64,000 nucleotides of DNA from an uncultured Armatimonadetes bacterium (GCA_963716175.1 OY970296.1:2624001-2688000); one strand, 5' to 3'; positions 53,917 to 64,000 are shown, counted from the first letter of the stretch. The notes: a model not told the origin generated them from the letters alone. Numbers and translations: made by a program.

Positions 53917-54160
53917 TTCCAGCCTCCTGTCCACGGCTATCATACTGTGGCTGGATTCTGCGTCTCGACGCTCTTCTCCCCTTACAAAGACAGCCACTGG
54001 TCACATAGGCCTGGCGAGACAGGCCAGGGGCCGGCAGGCTCAAGGCGCGGCCCGGGCTGACCGACAATAGCTAAGGGTGCCTACGGGCTGTATCACGGCC
54101 CAGTCAGCGAGCGCTGAGAGCGTCTTGCTGGGCTTCGGTTCTGGCCAGCACCACAGGGCA

Positions 54161-57130
54161 ATGCACCATATATCGCATCAGGCTGTTCTGGCGAGTGGGC
54201 TGCTACTGGCTGGCTTGGTGGCAGTCTGCATCATCCTGCTTCTGGAGCGAGCCGAGGCCCGCCGTCGGTGTGCCGCTGAGGTACTCAGGGCCAAGCGAGG
54301 CCTGGAATGCGAGATCGCGGAGCGCGAGCGCGCGGAGCAGGAGGTGCGGGAATCGGAGCAGAGATACCGTACGCTGGTGGACTCCGCGCCCGATCCCATT
54401 TTCGTGCTCAGTGAAAGTGGTGAGTTCCTGGCCGCAAACCAGGAGGCCGGGCGCGTGATCGGCAGAACCGCCGAGCAGGTGGTCGGGTTCAGCGTGCCTG
54501 AGCTGTTTCCTCCGGCGGTGGCCGACCAGCAGATGAGCGCCATTCGGGAAGTGTTCAAGACCGGCATGCCGCTGGTACCGGATACCGTGCTGATCCCCGG
54601 TCCGGAGGGTGATCGATGGTACTCGCCCAGGATCGCCCCCCTTAGAGATGCCCAGGGCAAGATCACCTCCGTGCTGGGCATCGCCCGTGACATCACCAAG
54701 CGCAAGCAAGCAGAGGAGGTGGAGCGAATCAGCAACAGCAGGTACCGCACGCTGATAGAGGCCCTCCCGCAGAAGATATTCCAGAAGGACCAGAACAGCG
54801 TCTACGTGGCCTGCAACGAGAACTACGCGAGGGACTTGGGGATTACCCCTGCCGAGGTTGCGGGAAAGACGGACTACGATTTCTTCCCCAGGGAATTGGC
54901 CGATAAGTACAGGGCGGACGACACGGCAATGATGGCATCGGGGAAGACGGCGGAGTTTGACGAGGCCTATCTCGAAGATGGCGAAAAGAGATTCGTACAT
55001 ACGGTCAAGACCCCGGTCAAAGACGAAGACGGAAACGTCACCGGCATCCTGGGGATATTCTGGGATATCACCGCGCGCAAGCAGGCCGAGGAGAAGCTGG
55101 CGACCGCCTACCGTCAGTTGGAGGAGACCAACAACGAGCTGAGACGCGCCATCGCCCAGACGAACGACTTGGCGATCCAAGCCGAGAAGGCGAGCATCGC
55201 CAAGAGCCAGTTCCTGGCCAACATGAGCCATGAGATCCGCACCCCCATGAATGCCATCATGGGCATGGCGGAGCTGGCGCTCGACACCAAGCTCACCTCC
55301 GAGCAGCGCGAGTACCTGATTGCGGTGCGCGAGTCGGCCAACTCTCTCCTGGATCTGATCAATGACATCCTCGATCTGGCCAGGGTGGAGGCCGGCAAGC
55401 TCGACCTGGAATTCATAGACTTCCACCTGCGGGACAGCCTGGGTGACGCGCTGAAGGTGCTCGCCCTCAGGGCGCATGAGAAGGGGCTCGAGCTAGCCTA
55501 CGAAGTCTGCCCCGAGGTGCCAGATGTGCTCCGGGGCGATCCCAGACGCCTCCGCCAGATCGTCACCAATCTGGTGGGCAATGCCATCAAGTTCACCGAG
55601 CAGGGCCAGGTGGTGGTTCGCGTGGAAGCGGAGTCGGAGACGGAGGAGGAGGTCGGCCTGCACTTCTCGGTCGCTGACACGGGGATTGGCATTCCCGAGG
55701 ACAAGCAGCGGATCATCTTCGAGGCCTTCGCCCAGGTGGACAGCTCCGCCACACGGCGCTATGGCGGCACGGGCCTGGGCCTGACCATCTCCGGCCAGCT
55801 CATAGCGGAGATGGGCGGCCGGATATGGGTGGAAAGCAAGGTGGGGGAGGGCAGCACGTTCCACTTCGCCGTCCCCCTGGGCCGGGGAAAGCCGGTGCCG
55901 GCCCTGCCTGCACAGCCCTCGGACATGAAGAATCTGCCCGTGCTGGTGGTGGACGATAACACCACAAACCGCGGCATTCTGGCACACATGCTCACGAACT
56001 GGGGCCTGAAGCCAAGGACGACCGGGGAGGCGCAGGAGGCGCTGGCCGCGATGCGAGAGGCGACGCAGACCGGGCAGCCCTTCGCCTTGGTGCTGCTGGA
56101 TGTCCAGATGCCGGGGATGGATGGTTTCGCGGTGGCCCAGCAGATCAAGGATGATCCTGAGCTGGCCGGGACCAGGATCATCATGCTCACCTCTTCCGGG
56201 CGGCGAGGCGATGCGGCGCGCTGCCGGAAGCTGGGGGTTTCGGGTTACCTCACCAAGCCGGTCAAGCAATCCGAGCTGTGGGAGGCCATCATGACGACAC
56301 TCGGCCTGCCCGCCTCGGCTACCGAGCCGGCACCTCTCATCACTCGGCACTCGCTGCGGGAGAGCCGCCGCCGACTCCGCATCCTGCTCGCCGAGGACCA
56401 TCCGGTCAACCAGAGGGTCGCGGTCCGGATGCTCGAGAAGCGAGGGCACCTGGTGGTCGTCGCCAGGAGCGGCAAGGAGGCGGTTGCTATCGCCAGGGAG
56501 CAGCCGCTCGATCTGGTGCTGATGGATGTGCAGATGCCGGAGCTGGACGGATTCGAGGCCACTGCCGCCATCCGGGACCAAGAGAAGGCGACTGGAAAGC
56601 ATCTGCCGATCATCGCCATGACCGCTCATGCTATGGAAGGGGACCGAGAGCGTTGTCTCGCCGCCGGCATGGACGGATACGTGGCGAAGCCGGTGACCGC
56701 GAGAGGGCTCTTCGAGGCGATCGAGAGTGTGGCTCCGGCAGCGCGTGGGCCGGAGCTGGCGTCGACCGGAACCGGAGAGGCCGAGGAAGTGCTGGACAGG
56801 GATGCGCTGCTGGGCAGTGTGGAGGGCGACATGGACCTGCTGAAGGAGATCCTCGACCAGTTTGGGGAGGACCGCTCGAAGCTGCTATCAGAGATACGGA
56901 GTGCGATCTCCTACGGAGATGCGGAGGCGTTGGAGCACACCGCCCACACTCTCAAGGGCGCGCTGGGCGCGCTCGGGGCCAAGCGCGCCTTCGATGCCGC
57001 GCTCAGGCTGGAGATGATGGGACGCCGCGGCGATCTCTCGCGGGCGGGTGAGGCCAGTGCCGAGCTGCAAGAGGAAATCGAACGCCTGCAGCCGGCGCTC
57101 GCCGCGTTGGCAACAGGTGAGGTCAGGTGA
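54161..57130 (+). CDS. Hybrid histidine kinase (TM-PAS-PAS-HisKA-HATPase-REC-REC-Hpt)
   Basis: FLANMSHEIRTPMN, NLVGNAIKFT, GGTGLGL, two receiver domains, AHTLKG. Start is uncertain. Confidence 0.93.
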   Translation: MHHISHQAVLASGLLLAGLVAVCIILLLERAEARRRCAAEVLRAKRGLECEIAERERAEQEVRESEQRYRTLVDSAPDPIFVLSESGEFLAANQEAGRVIGRTAEQVVGFSVPELFPPAVADQQMSAIREVFKTGMPLVPDTVLIPGPEGDRWYSPRIAPLRDAQGKITSVLGIARDITKRKQAEEVERISNSRYRTLIEALPQKIFQKDQNSVYVACNENYARDLGITPAEVAGKTDYDFFPRELADKYRADDTAMMASGKTAEFDEAYLEDGEKRFVHTVKTPVKDEDGNVTGILGIFWDITARKQAEEKLATAYRQLEETNNELRRAIAQTNDLAIQAEKASIAKSQFLANMSHEIRTPMNAIMGMAELALDTKLTSEQREYLIAVRESANSLLDLINDILDLARVEAGKLDLEFIDFHLRDSLGDALKVLALRAHEKGLELAYEVCPEVPDVLRGDPRRLRQIVTNLVGNAIKFTEQGQVVVRVEAESETEEEVGLHFSVADTGIGIPEDKQRIIFEAFAQVDSSATRRYGGTGLGLTISGQLIAEMGGRIWVESKVGEGSTFHFAVPLGRGKPVPALPAQPSDMKNLPVLVVDDNTTNRGILAHMLTNWGLKPRTTGEAQEALAAMREATQTGQPFALVLLDVQMPGMDGFAVAQQIKDDPELAGTRIIMLTSSGRRGDAARCRKLGVSGYLTKPVKQSELWEAIMTTLGLPASATEPAPLITRHSLRESRRRLRILLAEDHPVNQRVAVRMLEKRGHLVVVARSGKEAVAIAREQPLDLVLMDVQMPELDGFEATAAIRDQEKATGKHLPIIAMTAHAMEGDRERCLAAGMDGYVAKPVTARGLFEAIESVAPAARGPELASTGTGEAEEVLDRDALLGSVEGDMDLLKEILDQFGEDRSKLLSEIRSAISYGDAEALEHTAHTLKGALGALGAKRAFDAALRLEMMGRRGDLSRAGEASAELQEEIERLQPALAALATGEVR

Positions 57131-58056
57131 AAATCCTGGTGGTGGACGACCAACCCGTGTATCGGCGCCTGATCGAGGCCGCGCTGCGGAAAGCGGGCCA
57201 TGGGTTGACGGTGGTGGCCGACGGCGAGCAGGCCTGGGAGACGCTGGAGCAGGAGGAATACGATCTGGCCGTGCTGGACTGGCTGATGCCGGGGATGGAC
57301 GGCGTCACCCTCTGCCGGCGACTGCGGCAGAGAGTGGGGACGCGCTACCTCTACATCGTCATCCTCACCGCCAAGGACGGGCTTGCTGATATGGTGAAGG
57401 GACTGGATGCAGGGGCCGACGAGTACCTGGTCAAGCCATTCAACCCCGAGGAGCTTCGCGCTCGCGTCCGCGCTGGCGGGCGGATTGTGGAACTGGAGCG
57501 GAGGCTGTCCCAGGCCAATGCGCAGCTCGCCGCCCTTGCTTCCACGGACGAACTCACCGGGCTGATGAGCCGCCGCGCCATTCTCCGACGACTACAGGAG
57601 GAGATCGGCCGCAGCCTGCTGGAGCGCCGCCGCCTGAGTGTAGTCCTGGTGGACCTGGACGGCTTGAAGCAGATCAACGACAGGTACGGACATGCCGTGG
57701 GAGATGCTGTCCTGAAGGAAGCCTCCCATCGGCTGACGGCCCTGCTTCGCCGCTACGACAGCCTGGGCCGACTGGGCGGAGATGAGCTGCTGCTCCTGCT
57801 CCCAGGCTCCAGCGAGACCGAGGCCTCAGGGATGGCCGAGCGGATGCGAGCAGCCCTGGCCGGGCGGCCCTTTCCGATGGAGCCGGACCTCTCTGTGCAA
57901 GTCACCGCAGGCTTCGGCGCGGCCGAGGTGGATGAGGCCGGCGATAGCAAGACCGTCTTGCTGCGAGCAGACGAGGCGCTTTACCAGGCAAAACGCCAGG
58001 GCGGGAACGCCGTCGGTGTCGCCTCTTCAGTGCTGGCAGGCGAGGCGACAGAGTAG
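57127..58056 (+). CDS. Response regulator diguanylate cyclase (REC-GGDEF)
   Basis: Receiver domain, DELTGL, KQINDRYGH..GD, RRYD I-site, GGDEL, ADEALYQAK. Confidence 0.9.
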   Translation: MKILVVDDQPVYRRLIEAALRKAGHGLTVVADGEQAWETLEQEEYDLAVLDWLMPGMDGVTLCRRLRQRVGTRYLYIVILTAKDGLADMVKGLDAGADEYLVKPFNPEELRARVRAGGRIVELERRLSQANAQLAALASTDELTGLMSRRAILRRLQEEIGRSLLERRRLSVVLVDLDGLKQINDRYGHAVGDAVLKEASHRLTALLRRYDSLGRLGGDELLLLLPGSSETEASGMAERMRAALAGRPFPMEPDLSVQVTAGFGAAEVDEAGDSKTVLLRADEALYQAKRQGGNAVGVASSVLAGEATE

Positions 58057-58070
58057 GCTGCAACTGCCGC

Positions 58071-59378
58071 TCACCCCAGCAGCCAGCCGAGCATGGCTGC
58101 GGCCAGGTGCGAGATCTCCGCGTGGTCGGAGACTGGCAGGAGCGTCCAGACGAAGGCGTCATCCCAGGTATGCATTCCCTGAAAGTGGGTCCTGGCGAAG
58201 ACCTCTTTTCCCTTCGTGCTGCCCTTGAGATCGAAGCCGTTACGGCCGATGGCCACCAGGTCGGGGCCATGCTGCGACCTTGCTCCCCGGTAGATCTCAT
58301 CCCGGGAGAAGACGCGCTCGATCACGGGCTCTCCCTCCCAGGTCAGATGGCGCAGGCCGTGGGCCAGCTCCTCGCGCAGCGGAGGCGCCTCCTCGGGGCC
58401 TACGCATCCCCTGGCGAAGCGGCCGCGCAGATGGAGGTAGATGCGTCCCGGGTCGAGGGCAAAGGCGCGGGAGGCGGCCGCGAGCTCAGCCACGGAGGCC
58501 GGCTCCTGCTGCTCGTAACTGAGATAGCCGTGGTCCCTCAGCCAGGCATTCACCCTCACCTCGTGCTCGACCGCGGTGAACCCGTGGTCCGACAGCAGCA
58601 GGACTCCCTCGCCCTCGCGGTCCCCCGAGCGGCCCTCGTGGAACCAGTCCCAGATGTCGCCGATCAGCGCGTCCACGGCCCGGTAATAGCGCATCGCCTG
58701 CTGGTGCCGGGGGTGGTCGTCCTGCTCGACCGCGCTCCAGAGGAAGTGGTGCAGGCGATCGGTGCCTGTGAGCACCACCTGGAAGTAGTCCCAGGCCTCT
58801 CGCTCCCAGAAGTACCGCGCCGCGCGTGCCCGCGCGGCCAGAGTGGCATCGAGCTCGGCGAGCAAGGCATCGGGGTCCTCGCGGGCGCGCTCGGTGCTGA
58901 CATCGACGCGGTACCCCATCCGCTGGAGGGCCGGGAGGTGCTCCTTGGGCCACACGCTCTTCGCCAGATCGGGGGCGACGAAGCCGGAGACGAGCGCGCC
59001 GGGCACCGGGCGCGCGGGGTAGGTGGCGGGCTGGTTGATGATGCAGCAGCGCCGCCCGGCCTCGCCCAGCCGATCCCAGAGTGTGGGCACTGCCAGATCG
59101 CCGAACCCCGGGAAGCGCAAGCGGTAGCTGTCCGCGGAGACGTCGGTGAAGCCGAAGATGCCATGCTCCCCCGGGTTGGAGCCGGTCATGAAGGAGGACC
59201 AACTGACGGAGGAAACCGGGGGAAGGGAGGCCCGCATCTGCCTGAGGCCTCCGGCCCGGATGATGTCGGCGGTGCGCGGCATCACGGACTGGTGCGCGAG
59301 CCGTTGCAGCAGCCCGATCGGCACCCCGTCCAGCCCCACCACGCAGACCCGCCTCTTGCTGCGGCGAGAGAAAGGCAT
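58071..59378 (-). CDS. Alkaline phosphatase superfamily protein (nucleotide pyrophosphatase/phosphodiesterase-like)
   Basis: GLDG, PPVSSVSWSSFMTGSNPGEHG, DRLHH, SDHGF, GMH. Confidence 0.85.
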   Translation of the reverse strand: MPFSRRSKRRVCVVGLDGVPIGLLQRLAHQSVMPRTADIIRAGGLRQMRASLPPVSSVSWSSFMTGSNPGEHGIFGFTDVSADSYRLRFPGFGDLAVPTLWDRLGEAGRRCCIINQPATYPARPVPGALVSGFVAPDLAKSVWPKEHLPALQRMGYRVDVSTERAREDPDALLAELDATLAARARAARYFWEREAWDYFQVVLTGTDRLHHFLWSAVEQDDHPRHQQAMRYYRAVDALIGDIWDWFHEGRSGDREGEGVLLLSDHGFTAVEHEVRVNAWLRDHGYLSYEQQEPASVAELAAASRAFALDPGRIYLHLRGRFARGCVGPEEAPPLREELAHGLRHLTWEGEPVIERVFSRDEIYRGARSQHGPDLVAIGRNGFDLKGSTKGKEVFARTHFQGMHTWDDAFVWTLLPVSDHAEISHLAAAMLGWLLG

Positions 59379-59410: not shown

Positions 59411-60013
59411 TCAGATATAGCCCAGGTCGCGCAGCCGCTGCTTGATGCTCTCCTCTTCCTCTTCGCTGTAGCCACGGGTGTCACCGGCCGGGATATACCC
59501 CATCGTCTCCAGCGTGCCGATGATTTTGCCCACCGAGGTGTCAACGTCTTCCCGCCCGGTGTCGCAGACCACCTCGGGATGCTCCGGTGGCTCGTAGGGA
59601 TCGCTGACGCCAGTGAAGTGGGCGATCTCTCCTCGCAGCGCTTTCTCGTAGAGGCCCTTGGGATCGCGCGCGGTCAGGATCTCCAGGTCGCACTTGCAGT
59701 AGACCTCCACGAACCGGCCCACCAGCCTTCGGTTCTCCTCCCGGATCTCCCGGTAGGGGGAGATGGCGGCTGCTATCGCCACCACATCGTTGCGAGTAAG
59801 CAGGTGACAGATGAACCCGATGCGGCGGATATGGGTGTCGCGATCCTCCTTCGAGAACCCCAGCCCCTTGCTCAGGTTCAGGCGCACCACATCCCCGTCC
59901 AGCACCTCCACCTTCATCCCCCGCTCCAGCAGGATGTCGCGCACCTGCTCGGCCAGGGTGCTCTTGCCCGAGCCCGGAAGACCTGTGAACCAGAGAGTGA
60001 ATCCCTTCGCCAT
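59411..60013 (-). CDS. cysC: Adenylyl-sulfate kinase with extra acidic-LGY C-terminal tail
   Basis: [42 protein letters not shown]. Confidence 0.95.
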
Positions 60014-60023
60014 GTCCCGCCTT

Positions 60024-61403
60024 TCAGATGATGGACTCGCCGATCATGTCCGCTGGCACTGCCACCCCAAACCACTTGAGAATGGAGGGCGCCACATCGT
60101 AGATGCGATACCGCTCGGCCCGCCGCGGCGACCAGCCGGGCCCAGGATCCCAGGCCAGCACTCCGTCCGGGAGGTGGTTGGCATCGTCCGGCCCGGTATC
60201 GTTCTCCCGCTGGTGGACGGCTCCCATCCCCACCGATCCCGCGGAGCGCCAGTCGAGATCGCCGAAGTAGACGATCAGGTCGGGCGCGATGTTGTTCACT
60301 TCCCGGTAGACCTCTTCCGGGCGGAACACCCGGGTGCCGATGGGAGCCTGGCGCTCGTCCCCCAGCGCCTCCAGGCCGGCCTTCACCTCCTCCCGGACTC
60401 GCTCGTACGCGCCTGGAGGAATGCATCCCTGCGGCTCCCGGCCGGCCACATTGAGGAAGATCCGCCCGTAATAGCCTCCCTCTCCCCAGGCCCTGGTATG
60501 GGGCCAGTCAACCATCTGGGGAGCTAAGGGCACTCGCCGCGCGGGCTGCTCTTTCAGCTTCAGGTAGCCCTGCTGCTGGAGCCACTCGTTGACGCAGATC
60601 GCCCCCTGCATCGCCTTCGCGCCATGGTCGGAAACCACCAGGAAAGAGGCGCCGTCCCCGGCCGCCTCCATGGTTCTGCCGATCTCCTCATCCAGGCTGA
60701 GATAGTAATCGTGCAGCACGTGCTGATAGGGATTGCCCGGCTGGTAGAGCCGATGCTCCGGGTCGCAGAACCGCCAGAAGCCGTGCTGGAGCCGGTCCGG
60801 CCCCATTTCCACCATCATGGCGAAGTCGAAATCGTCGCTCTTCAGCAGCGCCCGAAAGGCGCGGAAGCGCGCCGCGGTCATCTTCTTCACAGACGCCAGC
60901 AGGGCTGCTTTGTCCTCGGTGCGGAAGTCCTTGACATCTATCACGTACTCGCCGCCGGCGGCCTGATCCAACACCTCTTGAATCGCGGCCGGATAGGTGA
61001 AGGACACCTCTTTGCTCGGCGTGGTGAAATCGGACACCATGATTCCATGCAGGGGCTGAGGCGGGTAGGTCTGGGGCACGCCCATCACCAGCGACTTCAG
61101 GCGGCCGCGGGAGAGGTAGTTCCATACCGTGCGGGCTTTGATGGCGGTGGCGTTGGTCACGCGCAGAGCGTCGTACTCGTAGCTGGCGCGATTGCGGAAC
61201 CCATACACCCCCAGCATGCCGGGGTCCTTGGAGGTCATCATGGCCGTCCAGGCCGGGACCGTGATGGGGGGGATGGTGGAGTGCAGACGTCCGGATGTTC
61301 CCCGGCTCGCCAGCGCCTTGAGATTGGGCATCTCGCCCAACCAGGCCTCGAGCGCCCACTGGGGAGTCAAGCAGTCCAGTCCGATCACCACCAGGCGCTT
61401 CAT
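60024..61403 (-). CDS. Alkaline phosphatase superfamily protein (nucleotide pyrophosphatase/phosphodiesterase-like)
   Basis: [36 protein letters not shown]. Confidence 0.85.
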
Positions 61404-62560
61404 GCCTCTTCTCTCCGGCGCATGCTCTCGGTCAGGATCTGAGCCACCTCGGCCCGGGTGAACTGGGCCGGGGGCAGCTCTCCCGCGGCCAGCATCTGGC
61501 GCACCCTGGTGCCGCTGAGCGTGACATGGTCATCGGGGCCGTGCGGGCAGGTCTTGGTGGTCGCCATATTCTCGCACCGCCGGCAATAGAAGGCGTGATC
61601 GAAGAATAGCGGCGTGATCGCGATCTCGTCGGGCTCGAACTCGCCGAAGATGGCGTGAGCGTCGAAGGGCCCGTAGTAGTTCCCCACGCCGGCGTGATCG
61701 CGACCCACGATGAAGTGGGTGCAGCCATAGTTCTTGCGGATGAGAGCGTGGAAGATGGCCTCCCGGGGCCCCGCGTAGCGCATCGCCGCGGGGAACACGG
61801 AGAGCACCACGCGGTCGCGCGGATAGTAGTGCTCGATGAGGGCTTCATAGCAGCGCATCCGCACCTCGGCCGGAGTGTCATCGGCCTTGGTCTCTCCCAC
61901 CAGGGGGTGAATCAGCAGGCCGTCGGCCAGCTCCAGCGCACACTTCTGGAGATATTCGTGGGCGCGATGGATCGGGTTCCGGGTCTGAAAGGCGGCAATC
62001 CGCTGCCATCCCTTGGCGACGAAGAGCACGCGCGTCTCCTTGGGCTGCAGGCGGTAGCGAAGGAAATCCCGGTGTTCCGGCGCGCGAATCAGGTGAATGC
62101 GGCCACCCAGGTAGACGGGCGATATGGAGTTCAGGTACTGCACCCCGGGGTGCGCCCCATCGGTGGTGCGCAACACCAGCTGGGCCTCATGGTCGTGGTC
62201 CACCCGGTAGCGGTCCGCCACCTCCATCACCGCCAGGGCGCGGCCTCCCTCATCCACCAGCGCGGCCTGGCTCCCGGGCTTCAGCTCCTCGTGCTCGGCC
62301 TGCTTCGCCGAAAGCACCACCGGGATGCTCCACACCAGGCCGCCGGCGAGGCGCATGGACTCCACCACACTGTGGTAGTCGGCGCTGGTCATGAATCCTT
62401 CGAGCGGGCTCATGGCCCCATAGGCGATCATCTCAACATCCGCCAGCTCCCGCTCGTTCAGAGCGATCTTCGGCAGATGCTCGGCCGCCTGCGCCAGCCG
62501 CTCCCGCTCTCCGCCCGAGGCGGTGCGGTCAACCAGCTTGCCACCATGTGGGCTGATCAT
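61400..62560 (-). CDS. sat: Sulfate adenylyltransferase (ATP sulfurylase)
   Basis: PHGGKL, SPLEGFM, AFQTRNPIHRAHEY, MRYAGPREA, HFIVGRDHAGVG, SGT. Confidence 0.96.
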   Translation of the reverse strand: MISPHGGKLVDRTASGGERERLAQAAEHLPKIALNERELADVEMIAYGAMSPLEGFMTSADYHSVVESMRLAGGLVWSIPVVLSAKQAEHEELKPGSQAALVDEGGRALAVMEVADRYRVDHDHEAQLVLRTTDGAHPGVQYLNSISPVYLGGRIHLIRAPEHRDFLRYRLQPKETRVLFVAKGWQRIAAFQTRNPIHRAHEYLQKCALELADGLLIHPLVGETKADDTPAEVRMRCYEALIEHYYPRDRVVLSVFPAAMRYAGPREAIFHALIRKNYGCTHFIVGRDHAGVGNYYGPFDAHAIFGEFEPDEIAITPLFFDHAFYCRRCENMATTKTCPHGPDDHVTLSGTRVRQMLAAGELPPAQFTRAEVAQILTESMRRREEA

Positions 62561-62596
62561 GCTATCGCGAGTCCATTCCGGCAACCATAGGGTTGA

Positions 62597-62727
62597 CTAG
62601 AGCGCATTTCATAGCCTACCTGCTGGCTGGCCGCACCACGCCCTCGCACGAAATGCGCCTGCCACTGCCTGACGTTGTGCAGTGCTGCTTCATAACCTCC
62701 CCTGGGAAGGTTATGAAACAGCTTCTA
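62597..62727. mobile_element. 131 bp MITE-like element, copy 2 (inverted relative to copy 1)
   Basis: Reverse complement of 3752-3882 with a few substitutions. Confidence 0.8.
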
Positions 62728-62775
62728 ACTGAGAGTCATAGTTTAGCCCACGGCGGGGCAACGTCCTGCCGGCCC

Positions 62776-63597
62776 CTACACCTGCACCCGCAGTGGGCCT
62801 TTGAGGGCATAGCCGAAGATTAGCGACAACACCAGCCAGGGCCAGATCCAGTGCATCCGCCAGCCGCGCAAGCGCAGCCAGGCGTCCGGGTATGAGACTT
62901 CAACCCAGGCTGCGGGCCCAGCCGCGGCCAGGGGAGGCTCCCCCGGGTTGAGAAGCTGCGGCCAGACCCCATCGTCCACGCGCCGCGGTGCCACCCGGGT
63001 CATGTGGTCGCCCACCACGATCTCTTTGGTGAACTCCACTCCCTGCACGGCGAAGCGCAGCTCGTGTCTGCCGGGAGCAACCGCTCGCACCCGCCAGTCC
63101 ACCTCGCCCAAGGCCGGCATGCGCAGCGCCGGCGTCTCTACCCTGATACCCGGTGGTGCGGAGATGGTCACGTCGTCCACCGGCCCCGCCTCCGGACGGA
63201 TCTCCGCCGCCACTATCGCTTGCTCGCCCACGCGCAGGGGCCGATGCCCATAGCGCAGATCGGCCTGGAGAAGGAAGATCCCGACCGGAAGGATCATGCA
63301 GGCCAGCGGCACCAGGGCATAGCCGAGATAGCGCAGATCATCCACGAATACGCCGGCCTGGGAGCGCAGCACCACGGACAGCTCATCGCGGTAGAGCCAG
63401 ACTGCCAGCAGATGGGCGATGATCCGGTCCTTCGCGGCACGGATGCCGCGCTGGTTGGAGGTGTAGCGAAAGATCAGCAGCAGGACCAGGCCGGAAAGCA
63501 GCGAGATCGCCACGATCCCGAGCCAGGGGTTGGCTCGGGCGAAAGGCGCGAAGAACAGGTCGAACCCGCGTGTGATCGCGGCGTTGATCATCGCCAT
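62776..63597 (-). CDS. Membrane protein, DUF106/EMC3-like topology with inserted beta domain
   Basis: Amphipathic N-helix, TM1, helical hairpin, TM2, Ig-like insert, then terminal TM WIWPWLVLSLIFGYALK. Confidence 0.55.
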   Translation of the reverse strand: MAMINAAITRGFDLFFAPFARANPWLGIVAISLLSGLVLLLIFRYTSNQRGIRAAKDRIIAHLLAVWLYRDELSVVLRSQAGVFVDDLRYLGYALVPLACMILPVGIFLLQADLRYGHRPLRVGEQAIVAAEIRPEAGPVDDVTISAPPGIRVETPALRMPALGEVDWRVRAVAPGRHELRFAVQGVEFTKEIVVGDHMTRVAPRRVDDGVWPQLLNPGEPPLAAAGPAAWVEVSYPDAWLRLRGWRMHWIWPWLVLSLIFGYALKGPLRVQV

Positions 63598-63602
63598 ATG
63601 AT

Positions 63603-63682
63603 GTAGGGCAGGAGCGGAAGCGGCTAGGCCTGCTTCGCAGGCCGCCGCCCCGGCTGCCTCAGGCAGCCTAGGGGCTCCTGCC
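63603..63682. repeat. Nested REP-like hairpin
   Basis: GTAGGGCAGGAGC...CCTAGGGGCTCCTGCC, with the same outer stem as the hairpin at 25470-25522. Confidence 0.7.
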
Positions 63683-63696
63683 TCCTCCGTCGAAGT

Positions 63697-63888
63697 TCAG
63701 TCCAGATAGCCCAGACCCTGCAGGCGCTTCCTGATCTCCTCCTCCGTCTCGGCCTGCTCCAGCACGGCCGCCGCCTTCTCCAGAGCGTGGCGGATGAACT
63801 CCTCGGTGGAGGAATACCCGGCGGCCTCGGCGCAGCGCGCCAGCCGCTGGTAGAGGTCCCGGTCGAGCTTGATCTTGGGGCCGAACAT
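63697..63888 (-). CDS. 63 aa protein, ribbon-helix-helix-like N-terminus plus LGY tail
   Basis: KIKLDRDLYQRL...GYSSTEEFIRHAL then ETEEEIRKRLQGLGYLD. GAGGA RBS. Confidence 0.75.
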   Translation of the reverse strand: MFGPKIKLDRDLYQRLARCAEAAGYSSTEEFIRHALEKAAAVLEQAETEEEIRKRLQGLGYLD

Positions 63889-63898
63889 GATCTCATCC

Positions 63899-64000
63899 TC
63901 ACCAGATAGGTTTCCCGGACATGCCCTCCGCGACCGGGAGGCCGAATTCCGCCAGCAGGCTGGCGGTCACATCCGGCAGACCCGGGCTGAGCGCGCGGAT
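63899..64000 (-). CDS. C-terminus of a probable alkaline phosphatase superfamily protein (continues beyond window)
   Basis: IRALSPGLPDVTASLLAEFGLPVAEGMSGKPIW parallels [25 protein letters not shown] of 60024-61403. Confidence 0.6.
   Translation of the reverse strand: MRALSPGLPDVTASLLAEFGLPVAEGMSGKPIW

Follow-up and report, generated by a model that had tools for sequence, protein, structure and literature searches.

A short C-terminal LGY tail shared by an APS kinase, ribbon-helix-helix proteins and AlkP-superfamily enzymes: a candidate docking helix in an Armatimonadetes gene cluster

We analyzed a 64,000-nt stretch from the genome of an uncultured Armatimonadetes bacterium (GCA_963716175.1, OY970296.1:2624001-2688000; hereafter, the window), focusing on a short C-terminal tail with the signature LxxLGY that is carried by two unrelated proteins, the adenosine 5'-phosphosulfate (APS) kinase CysC and the small ribbon-helix-helix (RHH) protein RHH63, both encoded next to genes of the alkaline phosphatase (AlkP) superfamily. 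The cluster is located on the minus strand and in the order of transcription comprises AlkP679, RHH63, Mem273, sat, AlkP459, cysC, and AlkP435. The gene of the 200-amino-acid (aa) CysC (59411..60013; PF01583, 2e-58) starts 10 bp downstream of AlkP459 (60024..61403; PF01663, 2.6e-42), which encodes a cytoplasmic enzyme similar to nucleotide pyrophosphatases/phosphodiesterases (NPPs) and is the predicted receptor of the tail. The gene of RHH63 (63697..63888, 63 aa) starts, also with a 10-bp gap, downstream of AlkP679 (679 aa; PF01663 match in the own-genome scan), whose 3' end occupies positions 63899..64000 and which runs past the window end. A second cytoplasmic PF01663 enzyme, AlkP435 (58071..59378; 1.7e-37), is encoded 32 bp downstream of cysC, and the ATP sulfurylase gene sat (61400..62584; PF01747, 1.5e-99; PF14306, 2.1e-53) overlaps by its stop the start of AlkP459 by 4 bp. 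Past the window end, there are a fourth PF01663 gene, AlkP701 (701 aa), and two divergent PF00884 genes.

None of the PF01663 enzymes of the cluster has the tail: AlkP459 ends with GESII, AlkP435 with GWLLG, AlkP679 with GKPIW (at approximately 63899), and AlkP701 is likewise tail-less. These four are the only genes of the genome with PF01663 as the best family, and all of them lie inside the cluster. The initial annotation of this locus had pointed out both tailed C-termini, the tail-less ends of the three AlkP proteins in the window and the position of the tailed genes directly after AlkP genes; all these observations are confirmed, the two C-termini being reproduced exactly when the sequence was re-checked. 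CysC is a genuine APS kinase, matching the family models above the curated cut-offs (NF002059, residues 2–174, 255.8 bits at the cut-off of 244; PF01583, residues 3–151, 197 bits at the cut-off of 21.1) and having a visible P-loop GLPGSGKS. As the kinase models stop at residue 174, the 26 residues 175–200 (59414..59491, minus strand), comprising a short linker, a capped helix and the invariant Tyr199, constitute an add-on, as had been suggested. RHH63 belongs to the CopG family of RHH proteins (PF01402, residues 6–39, 24.5 bits at the cut-off of 20.5), and its tail comprises residues 47–63, TEEEIRKRLQGLGYLD (63700..63750, minus strand).

The consensus of 60 tails is [Y/L]-[S/T]-acidic run-hydrophobic-x-x-R-L-x-x-L-G-Y-hydrophobic. 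The tail forms a self-contained helix of three turns, which starts with an N-cap box, is closed by a glycine C-cap, and is modeled at residues 184–197 in CysC and 479–491 in an AlkP carrying the tail in cis. Across 24 tailed CysC proteins from several phyla, seven positions (Y182, E187, R193, L194, L197, G198, Y199) do not vary, and neither do seven (E49, L56, G58, L59, G60, Y61, D63) across 18 aligned relatives of RHH63. Of the 401 genomes of the phylum, 55 encode RHH63, including each of the 14 from the family; all 120 relatives listed (71–100% identity) end with GLGY[LI][DE]. Similarly, all 87 proteins sharing the CysC end are APS kinases of the 200-aa type that terminate with [RKQS]DLGY[IL]. 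The tail tyrosine is never replaced, not even by phenylalanine, in these 207 members.

The 4.56-Mb genome was scanned in six frames with the regular expression LxxLGY placed at most four residues from the stop. Twelve open reading frames (ORFs) were found, one of them spurious (54 aa), and one further tail with seven trailing residues was found separately. The genome has 12 real carriers, that is, CysC, RHH63, and the products of 10 out of 17 PF00884 genes, and the tail is no random occurrence. The tailed PF00884 proteins do not have the class I formylglycine sulfatase signature C/S-x-P-x-R: the C-x-P-x-R motif is found in none of the ten, compared to three of the seven tail-less ones, and in seven of the ten the signature position is occupied by T-x-[P/A]-S. 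Several tailed PF00884 proteins have a lipobox or an N-in signal anchor at the N-terminus, and one has no membrane segment. One tailed PF00884 gene (G000:C1:1865455-1866323) is split over two frames covering PF00884 positions 2–121 and 135–301, probably due to a frameshift.

In a census of 5.8 billion proteins with a 40-column tail profile, where scoring was limited to the 8000 candidates with most words in common, we obtained 88 matches at E ≤ 10, with the tail at the C-terminus in 84. The latter comprise 9 CysC, 17 PF01663, 11 PF00884, and 4 DUF2061 proteins, and 43 small proteins of 72–118 aa, all of which start with a V-T-[IL]-K-[IL]-P strand and form a second RHH-like family, some members being named CopG or Arc/MetJ in the source annotation. 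The tail is thus confined to five families (PF01663, PF00884, CysC, DUF2061, and small RHH proteins). The other four matches (P0373, P0425, P0430, P0435) are false, being PG_binding_1 proteins in which an internal helix (LQxxLxxLGY) resembles the tail; a census with any tail profile would have to discard such matches. The tail was also considered as a PG_binding_1 (PF01471) domain, and this was rejected, as the resemblance is confined to the first-helix motif LxxLxxLGY and does not extend over the whole three-helix domain of about 57 residues, and neither CysC nor RHH63 has a PF01471 match. Comparison of the profile with all PDB sequences yielded chance matches only (best E 0.16), and a literature search, with subscription journals outside its scope, produced no description of the motif or of the link between AlkP459, Sat and CysC.

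The operon of a close relative (L140) combines several carriers in the order small RHH (tail), Sat, AlkP459, CysC (tail), AlkP435, DUF2061 (tail). The last gene (L140:7960-8238, minus strand, genome G220) encodes a membrane protein (PF09834, 3.5e-19), while no DUF2061 gene is present in the genome containing the window. The C-terminus of DUF2061, as well as CysC and RHH63, should be cytoplasmic.

A HMMER search with AlkP459 against 1.84 billion representatives retrieved 13,064 relatives. Among the best 150, which were examined for tails, 17 carry the tail in cis (e.g., ...GFSEEEEELVKQRLMELGYM), and two more end with L-Y-L, lacking the glycine and retaining the tyrosine. These 17 representatives and the ten PF00884 proteins of the genome bear out the statement, in the initial annotation, that proteins of the AlkP/sulfatase fold carry such tails in cis. 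Members of the AlkP459 family are also found in fusions, namely CysC-AlkP459-tail (P0212), Sat-AlkP459 (P0217), and AlkP-pyruvate-kinase-barrel-Sat (P0336). Further fusions, to a GT2 glycosyltransferase, a MobA-like nucleotidyltransferase and a methyltransferase, are observed in P0243, P0333 and P0355. By their composition, the fusions of this family hint at a role in nucleotide-sulfate or sugar modification.

We then considered 80 AlkP459 loci from many phyla, scanning all their 10,424 ORFs for the tail motif. Sixty-eight ORFs terminate with the motif (two look spurious), and elsewhere in the same ORFs it occurs only 44 times. Fifty-five loci have at least one tail, carried by AlkP459 itself in 9 loci, by CysC encoded directly downstream of AlkP459 in 12, by a neighboring PF01663 paralog in 25, by a PF00884 protein in 3, and only by a small ORF in 6. 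The placement of the tail in cis and in trans is complementary, as the initial annotation had anticipated: none of the nine loci with a cis-tailed AlkP459 has a second tail nearby, while 46 of the 71 loci with a tail-less AlkP459 have a tailed neighbor (Fisher's exact test, p = 2e-4, overstated, as the relatives are not independent). Moreover, CysC is tailed in 12 of the 13 loci where it directly follows AlkP459 (the exception is L090; L083 is cut), and in none of the four loci where it is located elsewhere (L071, L073, L087, L123). The gene order Sat-AlkP459-CysC(tail)-AlkP435 recurs in ten loci (L039, L041, L043, L044, L060, L061, L063, L079, L124, L137). In a quick tree, the tail states are clustered, with at least four supported change points for the CysC tail and at least four for the cis tail. 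In one locus, a tailed 94-aa protein with no family assigned (L085:8427-8708) directly follows a tail-less AlkP459, and this may be a case of gene fission, as the latter is sister (support 99) to the cis-tailed AlkP459 of L104.

This case makes fission and fusion plausible, and the tail could then be a generic stabilizing C-terminal helix, inherited by such events, that has no shared partner and no function on CysC and RHH63. To this explanation we attach hardly any credence, as the tail is among the best-conserved parts of RHH63 and tailed CysC across phyla and is limited to the five families, which are linked by neighborhood.

AlkP459 belongs to the NPP, or type I phosphodiesterase, group, as it matches PF01663 with 146 bits, has an NPP-like fold and contains a threonine in the T-x-P context. 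In a Foldseek comparison, a cis-tailed ortholog is most similar to NPP1, Xac NPP, and ENPP3/5/6 (E-values from 1e-17 to 1e-14), and also retrieves phosphonoacetate hydrolase. T48 of AlkP459 aligns with the threonine of SFTNP in phosphonoacetate hydrolase (alanine in entry 3t02) and with that of LTFPNH in Xac NPP, which we take to be the catalytic nucleophiles of these enzymes; judging by this alignment, T48 is the likely nucleophile of AlkP459.

AlkP459 (alignment of 40 rows) was co-folded with CysC residues 166–200 (24 rows), along with three controls. The ipSAE score is 0.78 (0.79, 0.74, and 0.78 in individual runs), compared to 0.00 in all three controls. In the calibration of the tool, 58 of 80 solved complexes attained this mark, as opposed to 2 of 110 mismatched pairs; the counts apply only roughly here, as our own alignments were used. 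The runs have at least 61% of contacts in common, and the predicted local distance difference test (pLDDT) score of the partner is at least 62. Memory of a solved complex is unlikely to explain this result, as no solved chain has the tail motif. In the model, CysC residues 180–182 and 186–200 contact AlkP459 residues I47, T48, V49, F69, R70, V82, P129, D156, F160, R161, R204, H207, G309, G310, Y311, R386, and D406. In particular, Y199 is in contact with I47, T48, V49, F69, and Y311; G198, with H207, G310, Y311, and R386; L194, with F69, R70, and V82; and R193, with D156. Entry of the tyrosine into the active site, for which the initial annotation had suggested co-folding with each AlkP as a check, is predicted for AlkP459 with the CysC tail, where Y199 is placed at T48 and the controls are passed.

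The same result bears on the possibility that the tails bundle with each other, forming homo- or hetero-oligomers (e.g., RHH tetramers, or CysC with tailed transferases), so that the AlkP core is not a receptor at all. The helix is amphipathic, with hydrophobic residues at i, i+4, i+7, i+9, and i+10, and two or three tailed proteins are encoded in clusters L060, L061, L067, and L140, while the dispersed tailed PF00884 genes would need no partner gene under such bundling. Yet the tail-less AlkP459 accepts the tail in the co-fold, passing the controls; AlkP459 is tail-less in all 12 loci where the adjacent CysC is tailed; and in all 9 cis loci a second tail is missing. Bundling therefore seems to us quite improbable.

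The position of Y199 in the model, against the likely nucleophile, would also fit a chemical role of the tyrosine, where the NPP-like enzyme loads it with a sulfuryl, phosphoryl or adenylyl group from APS or 3'-phosphoadenosine 5'-phosphosulfate (PAPS), yielding an aryl-ester donor or a regulatory switch. This agrees with the invariance of the tyrosine, which is kept even in the two variants lacking the glycine, with the presence of Sat and CysC in the same operon and their fusions to the AlkP459 family elsewhere, and with the existence of AlkP-superfamily sulfotransferases, Agl30 and Agl31 of Halobacterium, described in the available passages of the source (PMC11980604). However, the same tail occurs on RHH regulators, DUF2061, and PF00884 proteins with a lipobox or signal anchor, where a carrier fed by PAPS makes little sense; a tail in cis would allow for one turnover per protein; and an invariant tyrosine is equally compatible with a buried hydrogen bond. 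We consider such a chemical role unlikely. In its extended variant, the loaded tyrosine would be a "swinging arm" from which a second AlkP-fold transferase receives the activated group; exported PF00884 enzymes might use their cis tails to carry such a group outside, where there is no PAPS, and the RHH proteins would read the loading state. This variant appears to us rather improbable.

Another possibility is that the tail only marks the clients of a different widespread machine that recognizes it, for instance, a chaperone, a protease, a sorting factor or a tetratricopeptide repeat (TPR) protein. TPR domains bind acidic C-terminal peptides, and in one family of the phylum (L050, L051) the gene of a tailed RHH protein directly follows that of a TPR protein; the penultimate tyrosine is also reminiscent of the HbYX motif. 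The gene order in L050, L051, and L058 is a TPR protein that has an acidic linker and is about 440 aa long, the tailed RHH protein, a coiled-coil membrane protein (about 350–420 aa, no family), and an AlkP459-like gene. On the other hand, the distance from the tyrosine to the C-terminus varies from one to eight residues, which is unfit for a carboxylate-anchored motif, and no gene of such a receptor is conserved in the clusters. Moreover, the carriers apparently lie on both sides of the membrane (CysC and RHH proteins as opposed to PF00884 proteins with a lipobox or signal anchor), so that a single cytoplasmic receptor is unlikely, and a receptor traveling with the carriers, that is, the AlkP-fold core itself, fits better. 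We regard recognition by another machine as very unlikely. HbYX-type docking to the proteasome in particular was rejected, since the GYI end of CysC fits, but other ends vary (GYLD in RHH63, GYLK, GYLGG, GYVGD, GYIGDSSP) and some carriers are probably exported. The PF00227 matches in the genome are uninformative about the proteasome, as this family also matches in E. coli.

Taken together, these data lead us to propose that the tail is a portable helix docking into the catalytic cleft of AlkP-superfamily enzymes of the Thr type, which tethers CysC to AlkP459 and allows RHH63 to report free enzyme, a reading that we would give an even chance of being correct. The docking pose in the cleft of AlkP459 is predicted by the model; from it and the comparative data we infer the tethering of CysC, the regulatory use of RHH63 and the chemistry of AlkP459. 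In many lineages, the tail is the enzyme's own C-terminus, following a flexible linker, and there it could act within or between subunits. In the lineage of the window, AlkP459 is tail-less and the tail would instead be supplied by the APS kinase encoded immediately downstream, with Tyr199 and the preceding LG placed in the cleft beside T48, and the kinase producing PAPS would thereby be held on AlkP459. The latter presumably uses APS or PAPS, as fusions to Sat or CysC recur in its family. The tail of RHH63 and of the second small RHH family would allow a DNA-binding protein to bind an enzyme of the same kind, similarly to the binding of a toxin by the C-terminal helix of an RHH antitoxin, and transcription of the cluster could thus be coupled to free enzyme through RHH63. 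The initial annotation had proposed a docking module acting in trans to recruit the APS kinase. Docking in trans agrees with the comparative evidence and the one co-fold, while the restriction to APS kinase does not stand, since the scope of the tail also covers DUF2061, two kinds of RHH proteins, and probably exported PF00884 proteins.

Several observations weigh against this proposal. The docking is a model, with a modest pLDDT of the partner (62–64), and the co-folding covered one pair, AlkP459 with the CysC tail. The AlkP459 residues contacted most strongly are also invariant in the 14 orthologs whose flanks are complete and contain no tail, and co-folding may merely put a peptide in the most conserved cleft, as the contacts are invariant irrespective of a nearby tail. 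For the same reason, group-specific conservation of the interface was abandoned as a test of docking, the key residues being the same in tail-associated and tail-free orthologs. The pLDDT of the tail helix was also discarded as an indicator: at about 91 in a cis-tailed AlkP, but also about 89 in CysC alone, it is high in both and says nothing about docking. Further, a tail plugging the active site would prevent catalysis, except if its role is regulatory, if the substrate displaces it, or if it is the substrate itself. On the genomic side, the tail is missing from 25 of the 80 AlkP459 loci, of which about 9 lie on short or truncated contigs and 14 have good flanks, and the genome contains eight dispersed tailed PF00884 genes that have no AlkP459-type neighbor. 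Finally, in 5 of 20 loci of the phylum encoding tailed RHH proteins, no PF01663 gene is present in the fetched DNA, two of these five having a PF00884 gene.

C-terminal extensions are known in other enzymes of the same superfamily. According to the available passages of the source, in the sulfatases and phosphonate monoester hydrolases SmCS, RlPMH, and SpAS1 they reach the entrance to the active site of the other protomer and mediate oligomerization, and C-terminal truncation of SmCS impairs its activity (PMC5870055). The cis forms of the tail described here similarly are C-terminal extensions of an AlkP-fold enzyme, and in trans the tail is predicted to reach the active site. Unlike the extensions of SmCS, RlPMH, and SpAS1, which in these passages are longer, family-specific and always in cis, our tail is a motif of 17–26 residues common to PF01663, PF00884, CysC, RHH, and DUF2061 proteins. 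The profile matches no chain among the solved structures, so there is no sequence likeness to tails of the SmCS type.

In the passages available, Agl30 and Agl31 of Halobacterium salinarum are described as sulfatase-like sulfotransferases of the AlkP superfamily, one membrane-bound and one cytosolic, and provide a precedent for AlkP-fold enzymes that use activated sulfate (PMC11980604). They differ from AlkP459 in acting in archaeal N-glycosylation and belonging to the sulfatase branch, and neither the donor nor a tail is mentioned in these passages. An analogy to the coupling suggested for CysC and AlkP459 may be found in the Sat-CysC PAPS synthases and other fusions of sulfate-activation enzymes (NF004040 type), in which steps of sulfate activation are physically coupled, as they are in the Sat-AlkP459 and CysC-AlkP459-tail fusions. 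Unlike in Sat-CysC, the coupling in our case would be non-covalent, via the tail, and directed to a downstream NPP-like enzyme.

The initial annotation had also compared the tail to DltX, a small membrane protein of D-alanyl transfer, in which a conserved tyrosine near the C-terminus has been proposed as a covalent carrier; the position of a conserved tyrosine is indeed alike, and DltX belongs to another pathway. For RHH63, the natural comparison is with type II RHH antitoxins (ParD, CcdA, and FitA types), where an N-terminal RHH domain precedes a short C-terminal helix responsible for partner binding, which links partner level to transcription. The architecture of RHH63 is the same, an N-terminal RHH domain and then a short C-terminal helix. 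The assignment of RHH63 as an antitoxin as such was rejected: it is flanked by AlkP679 and Mem273, no toxin family was found next to it, and the FitA-like (18.9 bits) and TacA1 (16.7 bits) matches are below the cut-offs.

The remaining part of the cluster contains Mem273 (62776..63597, minus strand), a membrane protein whose gene is a conserved partner of RHH63, adjoining it in 13 loci (L039–L047, L049, L060, L061, L067) from several families and, in L060, L061, and L067, from other phyla. Mem273 has no Pfam or NCBIfam match, and a search in Atlas yielded uncharacterized clusters and a weak lead to EMC3/TMCO1 (0.85). The 191-bp gap between Mem273 and sat harbors a near-perfect palindrome of 39 bp (62684–62722), with 19-nt arms that are 89% complementary and a 1-nt spacer, which could be an operator or a hairpin. 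The operator idea was dropped, as the palindrome is absent from the loci of relatives, and no comparable repeat is found upstream of sat in seven relatives.

AlkP679 is probably an exported lipoprotein, as suggested by its orthologs, which have twin-arginine (Tat)/lipobox or Sec-lipoprotein signals. The AlkP701 gene is located beyond the window end (L059:9931-12113, minus strand; the window coordinate equals the L059 coordinate plus 56000). Its orthologs start with a signal peptide (...AHA), followed by YIGPGAGF, a membrane helix, and an RRRR run, a layout that suggests a cytoplasmic catalytic domain. Here the N-terminal piece is a separate 103-aa ORF in another frame (L059 11802-12113), due to either a frameshift or an assembly error. 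On the other side of the cluster, convergently with the end of AlkP435, positions 54077–58056 (plus strand) encode a hybrid histidine kinase of 1017 aa, with PAS, HisKA, two receiver domains and an Hpt-like end assigned by eye, and then a 309-aa receiver-GGDEF-like protein.

If the docking of the tail in the cleft of AlkP-fold enzymes is true, a single short motif joins PF01663 and PF00884 enzymes, APS kinase, DUF2061, and two small RHH families across many phyla, and the principle of C-terminal extensions of the alkaline phosphatase fold comes to include a short motif that a kinase, a membrane protein and transcription factors share in trans. As the motif is short and easily recognizable, the whole idea is directly testable by peptides and point mutants. 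The tail would also provide a handle on many proteins annotated as "AlkP family protein" or "sulfatase", which probably are neither phosphatases nor sulfatases. The AlkP459 family, with its repeated fusions to Sat or CysC, is a candidate for an unrecognized class of enzymes that transfer sulfate or process APS/PAPS. Moreover, this suggests a simple mechanism of enzyme sensing, in which a transcription factor carries the same tail as the enzyme.

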